Assembly (NCBI GenBank): GCA_048938855.1 | Contig: JBHLLT010000004.1 | Coordinates: 96,001-160,000, forward strand | Direction: 5' to 3' | Length of the DNA: 64,000 nt | Source: Promethearchaeota archaeon | GTDB lineage: Archaea > Asgardarchaeota > Lokiarchaeia > Sigyniarchaeales > SOKP01 | Part shown: piece after piece, positions 12,294 through 29,593 of the stretch | Layout: the number at the start of each line of letters is the position of its first letter | How positions within the stretch are numbered: position 1 is the stretch's first letter | Notes under the pieces: model-generated | What the model was told of the DNA's origin: nothing | Database searches by the model: none | The model's input: only the letters and a program-made list of their open reading frames with translations | Translations under genes and position numbers: made by a program

Positions 12294-13139
12294 TTATAGG
12301 AGTAGAAAATTTTTTAATAAGAATAGATCTAATTTTAAATCTTTTAATAATCTCATATTGTTAAAAAGATATGCATAAATGTTTTCTTCACTAAAATATT
12401 TGAAACAATAGTTTTTACTTTTTGTTTCCTTCAAAATATTTACAATACCAGAAACAAGTGACTTTAGATTTTTAATAACTAAATCTTTATCAGCCTTAAT
12501 TAGATTTATATCGATTAAATTGAACCAAGATTCCTTAGTGAAAGTAATATTCTTAAGTACAGGAGAATTCTTAAAATCTTTTTTAGTAGTAAGTGTATTG
12601 TACATTTCTTCTACTTTATTTAGTATTGTAATTTTTGATTTACTATACATTTTATTCTCAATCACATTCCTTAACATAATTAGAATTTTTTGAAATACTC
12701 CTAATATATCAAAGAAATCCGCCGTTTTTGCTAGGACTTCGACTTCTTCCCATTGATCATGATAATCTTCGATTTCATTAAGAAAAGGAAGAAAAATATT
12801 AATATCTCCATCCCAATTATGTCCTCTTTTCTCCCAAATGGAGTCAAACTGTTTTATAAATGCATTTTTAATTACATTAAGCCTTGCAAGGATGAACTCA
12901 GTTTTAGTATCTTTTGTATCAGCAGCGACAAAGAGTAGTTTATAATTGTCTTCTAATATATAAACCCATCTTAATCCCCCCATTTCTATAGAATCCAGTG
13001 ATTCTTGAAACTCTATCATAGAAAAATGGTAAAAAGCCGTTAAAAATCCAGAAACAATATCTTCATCTGCACTGGTTTTCAAAAATGATTTGTAAAGTAA
13101 TTTTGTTCCTGATTCAGAATCTAATACCCATATATTCAT
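12294..13139 (-). CDS. longin-like domain protein
   Basis: N-terminal IWVLDSESGTKLLYKSF...DIVSGFLTAF...F...LDSIEMG pattern typical of Asgard longin domains. Confidence 0.65.
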   Translation of the reverse strand: MNIWVLDSESGTKLLYKSFLKTSADEDIVSGFLTAFYHFSMIEFQESLDSIEMGGLRWVYILEDNYKLLFVAADTKDTKTEFILARLNVIKNAFIKQFDSIWEKRGHNWDGDINIFLPFLNEIEDYHDQWEEVEVLAKTADFFDILGVFQKILIMLRNVIENKMYSKSKITILNKVEEMYNTLTTKKDFKNSPVLKNITFTKESWFNLIDINLIKADKDLVIKNLKSLVSGIVNILKETKSKNYCFKYFSEENIYAYLFNNMRLLKDLKLDLFLLKNFLLL

Positions 13140-13306
13140 ATCAATAGAAAATAAATTGGCTTCTTTTAGGGAAAATAAAAATCCGAATCTTTTAAATTAT
13201 TTCCCAATAAATTTTAGAAATAATCTTAAGGTTCCAAAACTCGAAAACTTCAAAACTTGTTGCCAATATCTCTAATAATATGTTTTAATTTTGTATCTCC
13301 AATATC

Positions 13307-15025
13307 TTAATCCAAGTAATTACATATAATTTTAATATCTTGTTGGGTAAATTTGGGATTTTTAAGGTATTTTTTCATTAAAATATCTTTAATTTTAGAA
13401 TTATTTGAGTAATTATAGGATTTAGCTAAGAAATATACTTGAGTTTGGATTAAATAAGCTAAAAAGTGAAGAAAAGTGGAATTTATTCTTGTTTCATTAT
13501 TTTTTAAAGCTATTGTTATTTGCTCACGAGTCATTTTGCTATGAGCAATTTTATTTCTAATATTATTAAACCAAAAGAGCTCTCTCTCGAGTTTTAAAGG
13601 GAATTGAAACTTTTTTATTTTAGTTGGCATTCTAATGTCTTTTGAATCACCAATTCTAAACACTTTATCATAAAAATTAGAAAATTGTCTGAAGAAATCA
13701 ACTATGAAATCTCTTTTATTTTCAACTTCATAAAGCTCCACCCAATCTCCAATTCTCATTTTTGGCATTCCAGCCATAATTTCTTCCTTTATTTTTTCTG
13801 GGATATTCTCATCCTCCTGAGAGTCTTTCGAAATTTCATAATTCTTATCTGAATCAAGTAAATCGTATAATTCAGAGATTTCATTAAAAAAATAGGAAAA
13901 TTCTTTAGAGCTATTATTAACTGATTGACTCAACTGTTCTAAATAATCTAAATGAGCTTTTAACCATATTTTATATGCAATCCAATCCTTTTTGGGTAAT
14001 GGTATTTCTGGTTCTGAAATTTTATCTTCAATATCTTCTAATTTCACATCAGATATATTCATGTTCGGGTTATTTGTTACTAAGCCTAGTTTCTTTTCTA
14101 TTGTTTCAATATCTATTTGATCTGATTCAGATAATTTATAGTTTGAGATATTCATCTGATGCCATTCATCGATAAACTCATTTGGAATCCCCTCCTTCCA
14201 ATGATGGTTTCTTAAATAATTATAAAGTTTCTGGGGGTTGTATAATTCATCTAATTCTAAATGAGCAGGATTCACCTTCCTACTTCTGTATTCATGTAAT
14301 AATTGGATGAATTCCTTACCAAGAGCGTGATTTGTTGAAATAAGAACTTCATATTCCCTTGAAAAATCTTTTAAATTCTTACGAGGTTCAAATTTTATTT
14401 CAGAAATTTCTGGAATATTGATATCATAATAACGACTTGTGAAATCTAAGATTGAATTCCAGTATCTTTTATCATATTCCTTAAGGATATCATATAAATT
14501 ATCTAAAGTATTTGACTGATTTAGTTCTTTGAAGATCCGAGTTGCTACTATCTTGATCTTTTGAATATTTTCTTGTAATATAATCTCATCTTGAGAACTG
14601 GAAATAAGTAAATTTTCAAATTCTAACTCATCATCAGTAAGGTTGTAGTTTAAAAACTGATTATTTTTTTTATTGTAGAAAATGAATTTGCTTCCATTTG
14701 CTAAATTACTTATATTCTCATTTGAATTGATGACACATCGAATTCCATCCAATTCCATAATCTCTTTCACTTTTTCTTTATCAACATTATAAATAAAATA
14801 AAGTGTTGGAGTCTGTGAATATGAGTTAGTGCTTTCAAATTCTAAAATCTCTTTAAGATTGTGAAGAGCTGTGGTTTCAAGATCAATTACATTATATCCA
14901 ACAGTAAATTTTTCTAAGGCATGTAAATGTTTTAAGTCAACATAGGGGAAAATCACTAAATTCTTCTGCTGAAAAAAAATTATATTGAGAAATTCTGGTT
15001 TTATAAAATCTGAGCCTGTATCCAT
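13307..15025 (-). CDS. hypothetical protein with C-terminal HEPN-like RxxxxH motif
   Basis: 572 aa ORF; NNIRNKIAH in a helical C-terminal region; directly follows the GTPase gene. Confidence 0.55.
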   Translation of the reverse strand: MDTGSDFIKPEFLNIIFFQQKNLVIFPYVDLKHLHALEKFTVGYNVIDLETTALHNLKEILEFESTNSYSQTPTLYFIYNVDKEKVKEIMELDGIRCVINSNENISNLANGSKFIFYNKKNNQFLNYNLTDDELEFENLLISSSQDEIILQENIQKIKIVATRIFKELNQSNTLDNLYDILKEYDKRYWNSILDFTSRYYDINIPEISEIKFEPRKNLKDFSREYEVLISTNHALGKEFIQLLHEYRSRKVNPAHLELDELYNPQKLYNYLRNHHWKEGIPNEFIDEWHQMNISNYKLSESDQIDIETIEKKLGLVTNNPNMNISDVKLEDIEDKISEPEIPLPKKDWIAYKIWLKAHLDYLEQLSQSVNNSSKEFSYFFNEISELYDLLDSDKNYEISKDSQEDENIPEKIKEEIMAGMPKMRIGDWVELYEVENKRDFIVDFFRQFSNFYDKVFRIGDSKDIRMPTKIKKFQFPLKLERELFWFNNIRNKIAHSKMTREQITIALKNNETRINSTFLHFLAYLIQTQVYFLAKSYNYSNNSKIKDILMKKYLKNPKFTQQDIKIICNYLD

Positions 15026-15060
15026 GAGATCTCCTCAATTTTTAAGAATTTATAATGAAC

Positions 15061-15732
15061 TTATTCTTTAAAGTAATTAAAAATAATTTGAACTATTAAA
15101 TCCTTAAAACACTCTATTACATTTTTACCTTTTAGGGCTTCTGCGGGGTATACAACTAGTGTTCCATCGGGATATGATTCTTGAAGCGGTAACCCCAAAT
15201 GAAGTTTAAAGTTTTTAACAGGAAGAGCATTTTCTAAATCACGTTTATTCAGTTGAATTAGATAGGGTATCTTTTTAGGTTTGGCGAAACTAACCAATTC
15301 TCGAAAGCTTCTTTTATTTTGCTCTATCTTTTCAGGATCTGAATCTCCTATGAATATTATACCATCAGCACCATCTAAAACGTATTCACGTGTAGATAGG
15401 AATCTTTCTTGTCCTGTACAAGTCACTACATGACAAATAATATTGAATTTAATATCGTATAAAGTGAATTTAAATAATAAATAGAGAGAGTCTTCCCATA
15501 AAGTTCTTCCTTCAGTAGTTTCTATTGAATAGCCACGAGTTAATTTGATCAAATCGAATTTTTCACGTAATCTAAAGAAATTTGTAGTCTTTCCACTTTC
15601 TCCTGGCCCCCAATATACGATTTTGAATTGAATCATATTTTCTGAATCATTAAAATCAAAATCTTCACTTACTTCTACTTTTACTTTTCCTAAATTTCTG
15701 TGCTCTAATTCCATACGATCACCTGAGCTCAT
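15061..15732 (-). CDS. MglA-like small GTPase
   Basis: KIVYWGPGESGKTTN (G1), GRTL (G2), TCTGQ (G3), LDGADGIIF and NKRD (G4). Confidence 0.88.
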   Translation of the reverse strand: MSSGDRMELEHRNLGKVKVEVSEDFDFNDSENMIQFKIVYWGPGESGKTTNFFRLREKFDLIKLTRGYSIETTEGRTLWEDSLYLLFKFTLYDIKFNIICHVVTCTGQERFLSTREYVLDGADGIIFIGDSDPEKIEQNKRSFRELVSFAKPKKIPYLIQLNKRDLENALPVKNFKLHLGLPLQESYPDGTLVVYPAEALKGKNVIECFKDLIVQIIFNYFKE

Positions 15733-27224: not shown

Positions 27225-27314
27225 TCTTATCCCTTTTTTTTACAAAAATTTTACCTAAAATATCATCTAACAAATATTTATATCTATCTCATTCATAGCG
27301 AAGGTTTAAAAAAA

Positions 27315-27385
27315 AAACTGAATCCCTCACAGGGATAATCATCCAATAACTACCATTTTTTTATTGGAATCATTTTTTCAAGTTT
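27315..27385 (-). promoter_or_regulatory. SECIS element 1 (eukaryote-like)
   Basis: AUGAU-UCCAAUAA-AAAAAUGGUAG-UUAUUGGA-UGAU directly 3' of a TGA-containing ORF. Confidence 0.85.
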
Positions 27386-27587
27386 AAGATAAATCTATTC
27401 TGTGAAAGAGGCTTACGTATAAAACGATCAAAACAATTGCAGTTAATAAAAAGATCACTGAAGCTATAAGATAATTAACATAAAAACCTCACGCCCCCGA
27501 TTCAAGATAACAAGCTATAGATGTTATTACTGATCCTATTATGGCTACAAGAATTATTGCTTTCTTTAAGTTTTCATTCAACAGCAT
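27384..27587 (-). CDS. putative small two-TM selenoprotein (67 aa, Sec33)
   Basis: MLLNENLKKAIILVAIIGSVITSIACYLESGA-U-GFYVNYLIASVIFLLTAIVLIVLYVSLFHRIDLS; TGA at 27489-27491; alternative TTG start at 27581. Confidence 0.82.
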
Positions 27588-27700
27588 CACTTTTTTCTGT
27601 TTGAGAGTTTGTTTTAATCAAATATTAATTCGATTAAATATAAAAAATTTGACTATGAAATAATCGCAAGTAGAAATATTAAAAAGGAAAAATAAAAGTA

Positions 27701-28099
27701 TTATTCATTTAGAAGAATTTTTAATCCTTGAATAAGTTCTTGAGGAGTTACTCCATATAAAAGTGCCTGATGCATCATTTTAATGTTTATATCAATTAGA
27801 GAATCTAAGTCTTTTCCCGGTTGAAATTTCACCATTAGTTTCTTGATAATTTTATATACTGAGAATTTATTTTGCTTTAATTTCCCAAAATAGCCTCCAT
27901 ATGCCAAGAAGAGGTTTGCCATGAGTTCAAGGTCTTCTTGTGAGTTATTTTTATAACACTCTTCGCATACCACTCCAAAACTAAGTCCTTCCTGATATAT
28001 TGAAGCTCCTCGTTTGATTTCATTTCTACAAATCCCACATTTTATCACATCACGAGATAAATGGGTGGTCGGTTCTATATTAATTGAATTGATTTCCAT
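27701..28099 (-). CDS. zinc-finger hypothetical protein
   Basis: CGIC...CEEC; block promoter about 24 nt upstream (probably leaderless). Confidence 0.7.
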   Translation of the reverse strand: MEINSINIEPTTHLSRDVIKCGICRNEIKRGASIYQEGLSFGVVCEECYKNNSQEDLELMANLFLAYGGYFGKLKQNKFSVYKIIKKLMVKFQPGKDLDSLIDINIKMMHQALLYGVTPQELIQGLKILLNE

Positions 28100-28120
28100 A
28101 ATATTCTTTAATACTAGGTA

Positions 28121-28135
28121 TATTTAAAGAAAAAA
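28121..28135 (-). promoter_or_regulatory. block-specific promoter TTTTTTC-TTTAAATA
   Basis: Exact motif. Confidence 0.7.
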
Positions 28136-28233
28136 GGGTAGAAAATAGTTTGATAAATGTATATAAAACCCGAACTATTTTCACATTTGATGTCTAAATA
28201 TTAAAATAAAATAATGATTTTAGCAAAATATTA

Positions 28234-28299
28234 CCAAAATCCTGGGCGAGGATAATCATCCAATAACTACCATTTTTTTATTGGAATCATTTTTCTTGG
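28234..28299 (-). promoter_or_regulatory. SECIS element 2 (eukaryote-like)
   Basis: Same core as SECIS 1 with a different but complementary basal helix (CCAAGA/UUUUGG). Confidence 0.85.
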
Positions 28300-28314
28300 A
28301 TTTAAACCTGAATT

Positions 28315-28530
28315 TTACTTATTCGATTTTCTTTTATCTTCTATGTATAACATTCTGATTACACCGAGTAACACACAAGCAATTATGAAACTAGCAAACA
28401 TCACATATGGAGGAAATAATAAATAACTACCTCAAGCTGAAAGCATCGACATCACTAACATGCTAATACCAAAAATTATGAAAATAAAAGAAACAACACC
28501 TAAAATTCCTTTAACTACTGCATTTGACAT
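28315..28530 (-). CDS. putative small two-TM selenoprotein (71 aa, Sec33)
   Basis: MSNAVVKGILGVVSFIFIIFGISMLVMSMLSA-U-GSYLLFPPYVMFASFIIACVLLGVIRMLYIEDKRKSNK; TGA at 28432-28434. Confidence 0.82.
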
Positions 28531-28593
28531 AAAAATCATTCTATTTTGTTATTCACTTATCCTGAATTTTAAAATCGTTTAGATCTTTAATCT

Positions 28594-28803
28594 TTATTTA
28601 TTTTGTATTAATGGGAGCACAATATATATTACAATTGATACTATTGCAATGCTATCACTAATTATCGCGGGTATTGTGAGATATCTTATATTTCATGATA
28701 AAACAGGGTAATAGTACGGGGAAAGTATATGTAAAACGACACCGATAACACCAAATATACATATAAGACTCAATAGAATTGTCTTGATTTTTTTAGTTTT
28801 CAT
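28594..28803 (-). CDS. putative small two-TM selenoprotein (69 aa, Sec37)
   Basis: MKTKKIKTILLSLICIFGVIGVVLHILSPYYYPVLS-U-NIRYLTIPAIISDSIAIVSIVIYIVLPLIQNK; TGA at 28693-28695. Confidence 0.78.
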
Positions 28804-28928
28804 CTGAAATCTTTATTTTCTGGCATTTATATTTATTTTTGTATATTATTTTCACTAATCACTATTTTAAGTTTATTATCAAAAGTTCTATAATTTTGTA
28901 TTAGTTGAAAGCTTACTTTGAATATTTC

Positions 28929-28993
28929 CCGAATCCCTCACAAGGATAATCATCCAATGACTATCATTTTTTCATTGGAATCATTTCTTTCGG
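28929..28993 (-). promoter_or_regulatory. SECIS element 3 (eukaryote-like)
   Basis: AUGAU-UCCAAUGA-AAAAAUGAUAG-UCAUUGGA-UGAU; compensatory A-U to G-C change versus copies 1 and 2; basal helix CCGAA/UUCGG. Confidence 0.85.
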
Positions 28994-29011
28994 TTTAAAT
29001 TTGAGTAAGAT

Positions 29012-29236
29012 CTAGCCTCTTATATCTTCCACCACTAAAACTATTAATACAACAATATAGACCAATGCTAAAAAGAGGCCTATAATCACTGAATAAACTG
29101 GATTTACTGATATTGTCCATGTTGTCGATGGAGCTCAAACAACAGTCATCATTGAGTCGATTATTGCTCTAAAAATGAAAAATAATGCACACATTATTAG
29201 AACTACTTTGGTTGTCCACTTCAATTCAAATCTCAT
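29012..29236 (-). CDS. putative small two-TM selenoprotein (74 aa, Sec34)
   Basis: MRFELKWTTKVVLIMCALFFIFRAIIDSMMTVV-U-APSTTWTISVNPVYSVIIGLFLALVYIVVLIVLVVEDIRG; TGA at 29135-29137; GAGTGAG site upstream. Confidence 0.8.
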
Positions 29237-29268
29237 TTTACTCACTCAACATATTAATCACAGAACAT

Positions 29269-29475
29269 TTATGTTCGTTTCGCTTTCCTAATATAAAGTA
29301 TATATGCCACAACCAAGATTCCCGCAATTGAGAAGCTAATAATTGCTGGGATGGGCGTCTCTACTAGCAGATGTCCTCAAGCTAATATGTTATATCCAAT
29401 TATTAATCCAACACCCATAACCAAGAAAACAACTATGAATGTGATTAAAAGCCCTTTAATTACATCCTTTCTCAT
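29269..29475 (-). CDS. putative small two-TM selenoprotein (68 aa, Sec33)
   Basis: MRKDVIKGLLITFIVVFLVMGVGLIIGYNILA-U-GHLLVETPIPAIISFSIAGILVVAYILYIRKAKRT; TGA at 29377-29379. Confidence 0.82.
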
Positions 29476-29593
29476 TTTAATCATTAAATTTCTATTTAAT
29501 TTATGACGATGAAAAAGAAAAATCATTATATAAAACTTGTTTAATAAAAGTTTGAAAATTTGGATTTGGTAAAAGCTGAAATAATTTTTTTAA

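Follow-up and report, generated by a model that had tools for sequence, protein, structure and literature searches.

Five small genes on the minus strand of a Promethearchaeota archaeon genome (assembly GCA_048938855.1; contig JBHLLT010000004.1, positions 96,001 to 160,000, a stretch of 64,000 nucleotides referred to below as the window) very probably encode membrane proteins that contain selenocysteine (Sec) and that, as judged from sequence comparison, belong to one lineage-specific family of about 70 residues. Each of the open reading frames (ORFs; 67–74 codons) carries one in-frame TGA, which in all five sits between two hydrophobic helices, and the genes are accompanied by three hairpins which are Sec insertion sequence (SECIS) elements of the kind termed lokiSECIS. 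Whereas decoding of this type has been described before, the literature examined contains neither the protein family nor its location in the membrane or its organisation in arrays. Small membrane selenoproteins had been proposed at this locus in an original prediction made from the letters of the DNA, and that interpretation is supported by the conservation of the TGA, by selection on the codons past it, by the Sec machinery of the genome and by the identity of the SECIS elements.

UGA-containing reading frames and lokiSECIS elements

The genes and elements are as follows, with U denoting Sec and bit scores referring to R1, a covariance model built from the window copies of the hairpin.

ORF1, 29475 (or 29484)–29269, minus strand: 68–71 codons, predicted Sec codon UGA at 29379–29377, context Ala-U-Gly; first cistron of pair 1
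ORF2, 29236–29012, minus strand: 74 codons, predicted Sec codon UGA at 29137–29135, context Val-U-Ala; second cistron of pair 1
SECIS S2, 28923–28999, minus strand: 94.7 bits, loop AAAAAUGAUAG; no other SECIS is available to either ORF1 or ORF2
ORF3, 28803–28594, minus strand: 69 codons, predicted Sec codon UGA at 28695–28693, context Ser-U-Asn; first cistron of pair 2
ORF4, 28530–28315, minus strand: 71 codons, predicted Sec codon UGA at 28434–28432, context Ala-U-Gly; Cys in the second transmembrane (TM) helix, within IIACVLLG
SECIS S4, 28229–28305, minus strand: 89.0 bits; presumably for ORF3 and ORF4
ORF5, 27587–27384, minus strand: 67 codons, predicted Sec codon UGA at 27491–27489, context Ala-U-Gly; monocistronic
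SECIS S5, 27312–27388, minus strand: 89.8 bits; behind ORF5 and followed by a run of U

None of the five ORFs is annotated in the source genome. Their coordinates and strand agree exactly with those predicted, as do the single TGA in each frame (codons 33, 34, 37, 33 and 33 in ORF1 to ORF5, with ORF1 counted from 29475), the stop codons TAA or TAG, the use of TGG for Trp, and the context Ala-U-Gly in ORF1, ORF4 and ORF5. ORF1 may start at the ATG at 29484 or at that at 29475. A C/SxxU motif occurs in none of the five.

The three hairpins, which had likewise been noted as near-identical structures behind the genes, constitute a family of direct repeats of 77–79 nt with 76–80% identity, located at 27310–27388 behind ORF5, at 28227–28305 behind ORF4 and at 28921–28999 behind ORF2. 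They are lokiSECIS elements. According to Mariotti et al. (2016; PMC4989117), a lokiSECIS consists of AUGA, a 9-bp stem, an 11-nt loop and GA or AA; the loop's five initial nucleotides are A, the last is G and is usually preceded by A, and the element escapes standard SECIS tools. The window hairpins share the consensus AUGA-U-(8 bp)-AAAAAUG(G/A)UAG-(8 bp)-U-GA. In all three, AUGA lies directly 5′ of a main stem of nine positions, comprising a U·U and eight Watson-Crick pairs; the loop has 11 nt, and the apical loops AAAAAUGGUAG and AAAAAUGAUAG start with AAAAA and end with AG. GA follows 3′ of the stem in each copy (...UUGGA-U-GA-U), and the hdrA SECIS copies of the source genome have GA or AA at this place. 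The location just 3′ of a coding sequence is also that of the elements behind known selenoprotein genes. The match of S2 to the model starts 13 nt past the ORF2 stop and its helix I 18 nt past it, the corresponding distances for S4 and ORF4 being 10 and 15 nt; the paired part of S5 starts 2 nt past the ORF5 stop, whereas the model match overlaps the stop codon, starting 5 nt before its end. Hairpin and UGA-containing ORF invariably share one strand, and the hairpin starts at most about 15 nt from the stop in the window and at most about 60 nt in relatives.

Comparison with the SECIS elements of known selenoprotein genes, as suggested along with the original prediction, revealed the same architecture. 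Model R1 found elements behind hdrA or hdrA-vhuD on contigs C20, C74, C77 and C64 of the source genome, and a genome scan for a pattern of this architecture found the hdrA element of contig C62, which had been omitted from R1 owing to its misalignment by MAFFT. The hdrA or hdrA-vhuD frames on all five contigs contain in-frame TGAs at known Sec sites. Among 33 distinct copies of the element from the source and related genomes, pairing is kept in 95% of the alignment cells in paired columns, and compensatory changes are seen for 16 of the 17 pairs, all eight Watson-Crick pairs of the main stem covarying; the covariation exceeded that in every shuffled and slid control, with the alignment having been fitted to the model and thus somewhat favouring it. 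In single-sequence folding, the hairpins were no more stable than shuffled sequences (z from –0.8 to +0.4), and the support for the structure is covariation, not energy. An Rfam search of the region with E-values up to 10 gave chance matches and no SECIS family.

The copies also have a basal helix (helix I) and, 3′ of the GA, a conserved side hairpin of 4–6 bp, which together with the main stem form a three-way junction. Basal helix and side hairpin both covary, and they are present behind hdrA-vhuD as well (window copies, L011–L015); the side hairpin is absent from the description of lokiSECIS in the available part of PMC4989117. A weaker R1 match of 43 bits, resembling a type II SECIS in having a ministem in the apical loop, is located at L016:1501–1582 (contig C47:26693–26774 of the source genome, G000, plus strand). 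It abuts the end of a 311-codon frame, the sole TGA of which lies upstream of the first Met.

Conservation of the UGA codon and of the frame behind it

Relatives, almost all of which have a single TGA, were detected within the genus; the best profile alignment found them in 14 of its 53 other species. Across 400 genomes of the phylum, which include 84 other genera, the family profile gave no real matches outside the genus; among the genomes searched, the family is confined to one genus. A 20-mer of the SECIS retrieved ten metagenome contigs, all of them with family ORFs. Both this 20-mer and a radA query worked in the locus searches; those with the family alignment, with ORF1 (in genomes) and with the ORF4 subgroup (in metagenomes) returned nothing usable. 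The genes are arranged in tandem arrays of 5–10 paralogues, and a SECIS upstream of radA, as in the window, was observed at 7 of 35 related loci of metagenome-assembled genomes. By the radA gene adjacent to the array, the source organism falls among metagenome-assembled genomes of Promethearchaeota (Lokiarchaeota). Hidden Markov model searches in which one subgroup at a time was left out (E-values at Z = 10,000) recovered all five window ORFs, with E-values of 7e-17 for ORF1, 3.4e-10 for ORF3, 1.3e-6 for ORF2 and 1.6e-5 for ORF5; because the reduced profiles recover them, the five are regarded as one family, in which ORF2 and ORF5 are the most divergent of the window ORFs. Weak matches to 4-TM proteins of a sister genus (L149–L151) were not accepted as family members; the loop of these proteins contains neither Sec nor Cys.

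Of 47 distinct DNA-backed members, 41 have TGA at the loop column in question and three have Cys, while the other three have Ser, Ala and Asp, respectively. A conserved TGA or Cys at the aligned site had been expected of homologues, and this is what the column contains for the most part; Trp or arbitrary residues had been named as evidence to the contrary, and the few paralogues with Ser, Ala or Asp do point that way, the dominance of TGA the other. In 27 of 34 cases a small residue (Ala, Ser or Gly) precedes Sec, and Gly follows Sec in 22 of 34. Orthologues of ORF1 in genomes G007 and G017 and of ORF2 in G007 retain the TGA; for ORF3, the orthologues from three genomes (G007, G011 and G097) and three contigs (L132, L135 and L139) have the common reading LS/T-U-N-I. 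In nine orthologue pairs, TGA aligns with TGA nine times.

Decaying pseudogenes or chance frames in AT-rich DNA, combined with hairpins belonging to an unrelated repeat or mobile element, might be suspected in a genome of 30% GC, where hydrophobic open frames are common, and at a locus with three hairpin repeats within 2 kb. However, a six-frame scan of the 3.95-Mb genome for frames that start with ATG, have one TGA between two hydrophobic helices and close with TAA or TAG matched only eight ORFs, four of which lie at this locus, inside a 2.1-kb stretch; ORF1 was not caught because its frame is open upstream of the start. Moreover, the TGA column is maintained in at least 15 species at synonymous divergences (dS) of 0.4–1.6, and the hairpin, on the same strand as the UGA-containing ORF and near its stop, marks known selenoprotein genes, too. 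We give this explanation practically no credence; the comparative sequence data already contradict it.

When 1.8 billion representative proteins were searched with a profile, 12 matches were obtained. They comprise N-terminal stubs that end at the TGA, Sec-less forms, and five proteins of full length in which the Sec column holds Trp. The stubs, among them P0016 and P0018, which stop at the TGA, and one that is window ORF1, are exactly the products to be expected if translation terminated at the UGA to yield single-helix micropeptides of 32–36 residues, the downstream frame being retained for another reason, such as an RNA structure or a separately started peptide. This is highly improbable in view of the downstream frame itself: in each of the 41 Sec members it keeps the phase of the frame upstream, and it shows protein-like constraint. 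The ratio of nonsynonymous to synonymous substitution rates (dN/dS) past the TGA is 0.05 and 0.18 for ORF1 as compared to G007 and G017, respectively (0.64 between G007 and G017), and 0.04 for ORF4 at a dS of 1.4, so that the lowest values, 0.04–0.05, occur at saturated dS; it is 0.32 for ORF3, and 0.43 for ORF2 as compared to G007. Purifying selection past the TGA, which had been proposed as a test, was thus found, and it is strong in ORF1 and ORF4. Overall, dS of the orthologue pairs ranges from 0.4 to 1.6, with 1.4–1.6 in the ORF1 and ORF4 comparisons. The best-conserved motifs of the family are encoded past the TGA, namely an IPAIIS-like sequence where helix 2 starts and an acidic-basic (ED-KR) tail; the downstream portion of ORF1 lacks a Met codon from which a separate peptide could start, and Sec-less paralogues are continuous ORFs of equal length and architecture.

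Read-through of the UGA by other means than Sec insertion, that is by near-cognate Trp or Cys or by some local recoding that results in full-length proteins without selenium, would explain the conservation past the TGA equally well, and Trp at the Sec column in five database proteins (P0009, P0011, P0012, P0015 and P0017) is in its favour. We nevertheless consider it very unlikely. TGA is an ordinary stop codon in the source genome, where it terminates 215 of 1634 open frames of at least 300 codons. Behind every UGA-containing gene or gene pair stands a lokiSECIS with the architecture of the hdrA-vhuD elements, the SECIS is absent or decayed in Sec-less paralogues, and in all DNA examined the TGA exchanges with Cys codons, not with TGG. 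The Trp entries are probably gene calls in which TGA was translated as Trp, since one of the five, P0017, is identical in 77 of 78 positions to an ORF of contig L135, and the codon concerned is TGA in the DNA of this contig. In P0012, Trp occupies both of the positions that are TGA in G007 and L132. When the genus was searched with two of the Trp proteins, relatives of 56–78% identity were obtained, all with TGA.

The fate of the SECIS follows that of Sec in several paralogues. SECIS elements of Sec members score 58–95 bits. The Sec-less L153 is without a SECIS, as is the Cys form with which the G007 array ends, and the Sec-less L152 (L152:300–383; G094 contig C58), which has Ala at the Sec column, is followed by a degenerate SECIS-like element of 28.6 bits that looks like a relic left after Sec loss. 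Two TGA-less paralogues of G007 have a Cys pair, CxGxxCP, in the loop, with one Cys at the Sec column, although the placement of the loop Cys against this column is ambiguous by one residue. The Cys in TM helix 2 of ORF4 (IIACVLLG) corresponds to TGA in the orthologues of G007 and L132.

The orthologous locus of the sister species represented by G007 (contig C17, about 12400–15300; L029/L050) comprises about ten paralogues, two of which are of the Cys-pair form and one of which has Ser, while an orthologue of ORF4 contains two TGAs; the array is served by four or five SECIS elements. At another locus, L154 (G006 contig C1:2779300–2780300), three in-frame TGAs occur in the loop (..ST-U-YLA-U-GRLA-U-V..) and are followed by a normal SECIS of 72 bits, representing either a multi-Sec loop or a decaying copy.

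Sec machinery and proposed sharing of SECIS elements

The genome contains the Sec machinery whose presence the original prediction had called for. A tRNA-Sec (61 bits, anticodon TCA) is located about 200 nt from the gene of SepSecS, and a SelB-like gene (231.6 bits, just under the cut-off for bacterial selB) lies about 5 kb from these two. A full-length PSTK-like gene scored 132.8 bits, which is below the cut-off, and two selD genes with one TGA each (Sec-selD) are present.

Sec-specific decoding of the window genes probably proceeds as in known Lokiarchaeota selenoprotein genes. The mRNA would end in the eukaryote-like, Lokiarchaeota-type SECIS, and at the UGA just past the first TM helix Sec would be inserted rather than translation terminated, by means of the tRNA-Sec, SepSecS, PSTK-like, SelB/EFSec-like and SelD components of the genome. 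Translation would then run on through the second helix to TAA or TAG. ORF1 and ORF2, as well as ORF3 and ORF4, would represent two-gene units with one SECIS behind the second gene, as in hdrA-vhuD, and ORF5 would use its own element.

Neither ORF1 nor ORF3 has its own SECIS; for both, the nearest one is located about 390–400 nt 3′ of the UGA, behind ORF2 and ORF4. In G017 and G011, a SECIS stands directly behind the orthologues of ORF1 and ORF3. The ORF1 orthologue of G007 is followed by a UGA-free paralogue and then by a SECIS, and since the intervening cistron is UGA-free, this SECIS can only serve the gene one cistron upstream. A SECIS common to two adjacent genes, as considered here for the ORF pairs, has been proposed for hdrA-vhuD by Mariotti et al. 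(PMC4989117) and by Huang et al. (2024; PMC11227280). From these arrangements we infer that S2 and S4 each serve two cistrons, namely ORF1 and ORF2, and ORF3 and ORF4, respectively.

Several points weigh against the interpretation of the five ORFs as genes of Sec-decoded membrane proteins. Use of a SECIS across one cistron by ORF1 and ORF3 is deduced from the hdrA-vhuD and G007 arrangements. The constraint on ORF2 is weaker (dN/dS of 0.43–0.63), and ORF5 is without a close orthologue and is for this reason the weakest member. The Trp entries in the database have been mentioned above, as have the divergent paralogues with Ser, Ala or Asp at the Sec column; given the latter and a database homologue without Cys or Sec in the loop (P0013), Sec is not obligatory for the fold. 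The structure model of the protein is of moderate confidence, and the gene neighbourhood (radA, a P-loop ATPase and genes without assigned function) gives no support to a function.

Topology, possible function and relation to known selenoproteins

Hydropathy, charge distribution and the structure model suggest that the protein folds as a hairpin of two helices whose basic tails both reside in the cytoplasm, the Sec loop being outside. AlphaFold2 predicted helices at residues 2–31 and 42–67 with a mean pLDDT of 70. On average, the N-terminal tail contains 2.4 Lys and Arg residues, the loop 0.56 and the C-terminal tail 3.0. An outward orientation of the loop had already been predicted from the basic termini; these counts agree with it, and the placement follows from the positive-inside rule as applied to them. 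Searches against Pfam (19 members, E up to 1) and against NCBIfam gave sub-threshold matches to generic TM families alone (MreD, holin, SecE, AmaP). Of these, Phage_holin_3_6 was matched by four members, with a best E-value of 0.002, and was rejected as being under the curated cut-offs and reflecting generic TM composition. Class II holin-like hairpins resemble the window family in having about 70 residues, two TM helices with both termini inside and a charged C-terminal tail, but the window array is without phage context, and we know of no need of holins for Sec or for a conserved loop residue.

The putative outer loop of about 10–20 residues would open with a small residue, Sec and Gly and lead to the IPAIIS-like start of helix 2, with the exposed selenol as the working group. 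This selenol might act as a redox nucleophile, forming a selenenylsulfide with thiols or a diselenide with another Sec, or alternatively as a ligand of soft metals or metalloids at the membrane surface. Exposed-selenol chemistry, either redox or soft-metal binding, is our best guess at the function, and it is much less certain than the decoding. The CxGxxCP paralogues and the exchange of Sec and Cys point to thiol or selenol chemistry at the loop site. As a lead, the CxGxxCP form is reminiscent of the motifs of a Cys pair plus Pro in small mercury transporters. The neighbours of the array are radA and genes of a P-loop ATPase, a 132-residue CxxC protein and membrane proteins without assigned function; no mer or ars genes are among them. 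The 132-residue ORF (27701–28099, minus strand), located between SECIS S4 and ORF5, has two CxxC pairs near its N-terminus and no Pfam match.

A more far-reaching proposal, which we put forward tentatively and hold to be somewhat more doubtful than probable, is that rapidly diversifying hairpin micro-proteins, amplified in tandem, display free selenols outside the cytoplasmic membrane without an enzyme fold. These selenols would either constitute a redox or soft-metal site at the surface or clasp subunits together covalently through a diselenide or selenenylsulfide. They would be the first membrane or extracytoplasmic selenoproteins of archaea, and their SECIS would act across a cistron.

SELENOK and SELENOS have one TM helix, and their Sec is near the C-terminus in a disordered cytosolic tail. 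Like the window proteins, they are small and membrane-anchored, with a single Sec as the sole evident functional group and a kink-turn SECIS in the 3′ untranslated region of the mRNA. In contrast, the window family has two TM helices with Sec in the loop between them, which is predicted to be outside; a topology distinct from that of SELENOK and SELENOS, as claimed in the original prediction, is therefore borne out. The Pfam search indicated no sequence similarity to SELENOK or SELENOS.

In bacteria, Sec-containing membrane or transport proteins linked to metal resistance are known, namely a putative MerT (PF02411, with C/SxxU), a P-type ATPase and SaoP (PMC13188914). These share with the window family Sec or Cys at the membrane interface, where it is probably a ligand of soft metals, and the exchange of Sec and Cys, and they are the nearest functional precedent, but no homology was found. 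PF02411 was absent from the Pfam results for the 19 members at E up to 1, and neither Pfam nor NCBIfam gave a match to MerT or another transporter. Unlike MerT with its C/SxxU, most members of the window family have a single Sec and no partner Cys; and the known Sec-containing membrane transporters, MerT included, are bacterial, whereas the window family is archaeal.

The HdrA-VhuD, VhuU and PrxL genes of Lokiarchaeota share with the window genes the lokiSECIS just past the stop and the Sec machinery. Those families are soluble, whereas the window family consists of unrelated membrane hairpins of about 70 residues encoded in tandem arrays. A survey of Asgard selenoproteomes lists seven families, all of them found by homology (Huang et al. 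2024, PMC11227280), and a 2026 review lists 11 archaeal families (PMC13188914); the families in these lists are soluble redox enzymes or SelD. Neither the two-TM family nor any other membrane or small selenoprotein is contained in PMC11227280, PMC13188914, PMC9723677 or the available part of PMC4989117, and full-text searches of the literature added nothing. The notion of a new selenoprotein family is consistent with its absence from these lists.

Outside the window, a gene of 70 codons on contig C66 (L012:1575–1787; G000 contig C66:27745–27957, minus strand) was observed, which codes for one TM helix, the sequence ...NAGTNGSCG-U-GG... and a hydrophobic tail and has its own lokiSECIS, matched by R1, 12 nt past the stop. 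Orthologues in G003, G007 and G030 retain G-U-G and evolve fast, with dN/dS of 0.4–1.0 past the TGA. Membership in the two-helix family was rejected (hhalign probability of 8%), and because hhalign finds no homology, the C66 gene is assigned to a second, separate family of small selenoproteins.

The window family accounts for about one third of the selenoprotein genes counted in the source genome. Homology-based catalogues of archaeal selenoproteins would miss a class of micro-proteins of this kind, as gene callers cut them at the UGA or translate it as Trp, and with this family annotators have a concrete model by which such genes can be found. The presence of Sec in a short loop at the predicted outer face, without an enzyme fold, is not explained by the usual rationale that Sec makes for faster redox enzymes. 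The arrays moreover constitute a natural test set for the SECIS, with elements that appear to be shared by two cistrons, to act across a UGA-free cistron or to decay after the loss of Sec, and such cases should be of use in clarifying the mode of action of the eukaryote-like SECIS in Asgard archaea.

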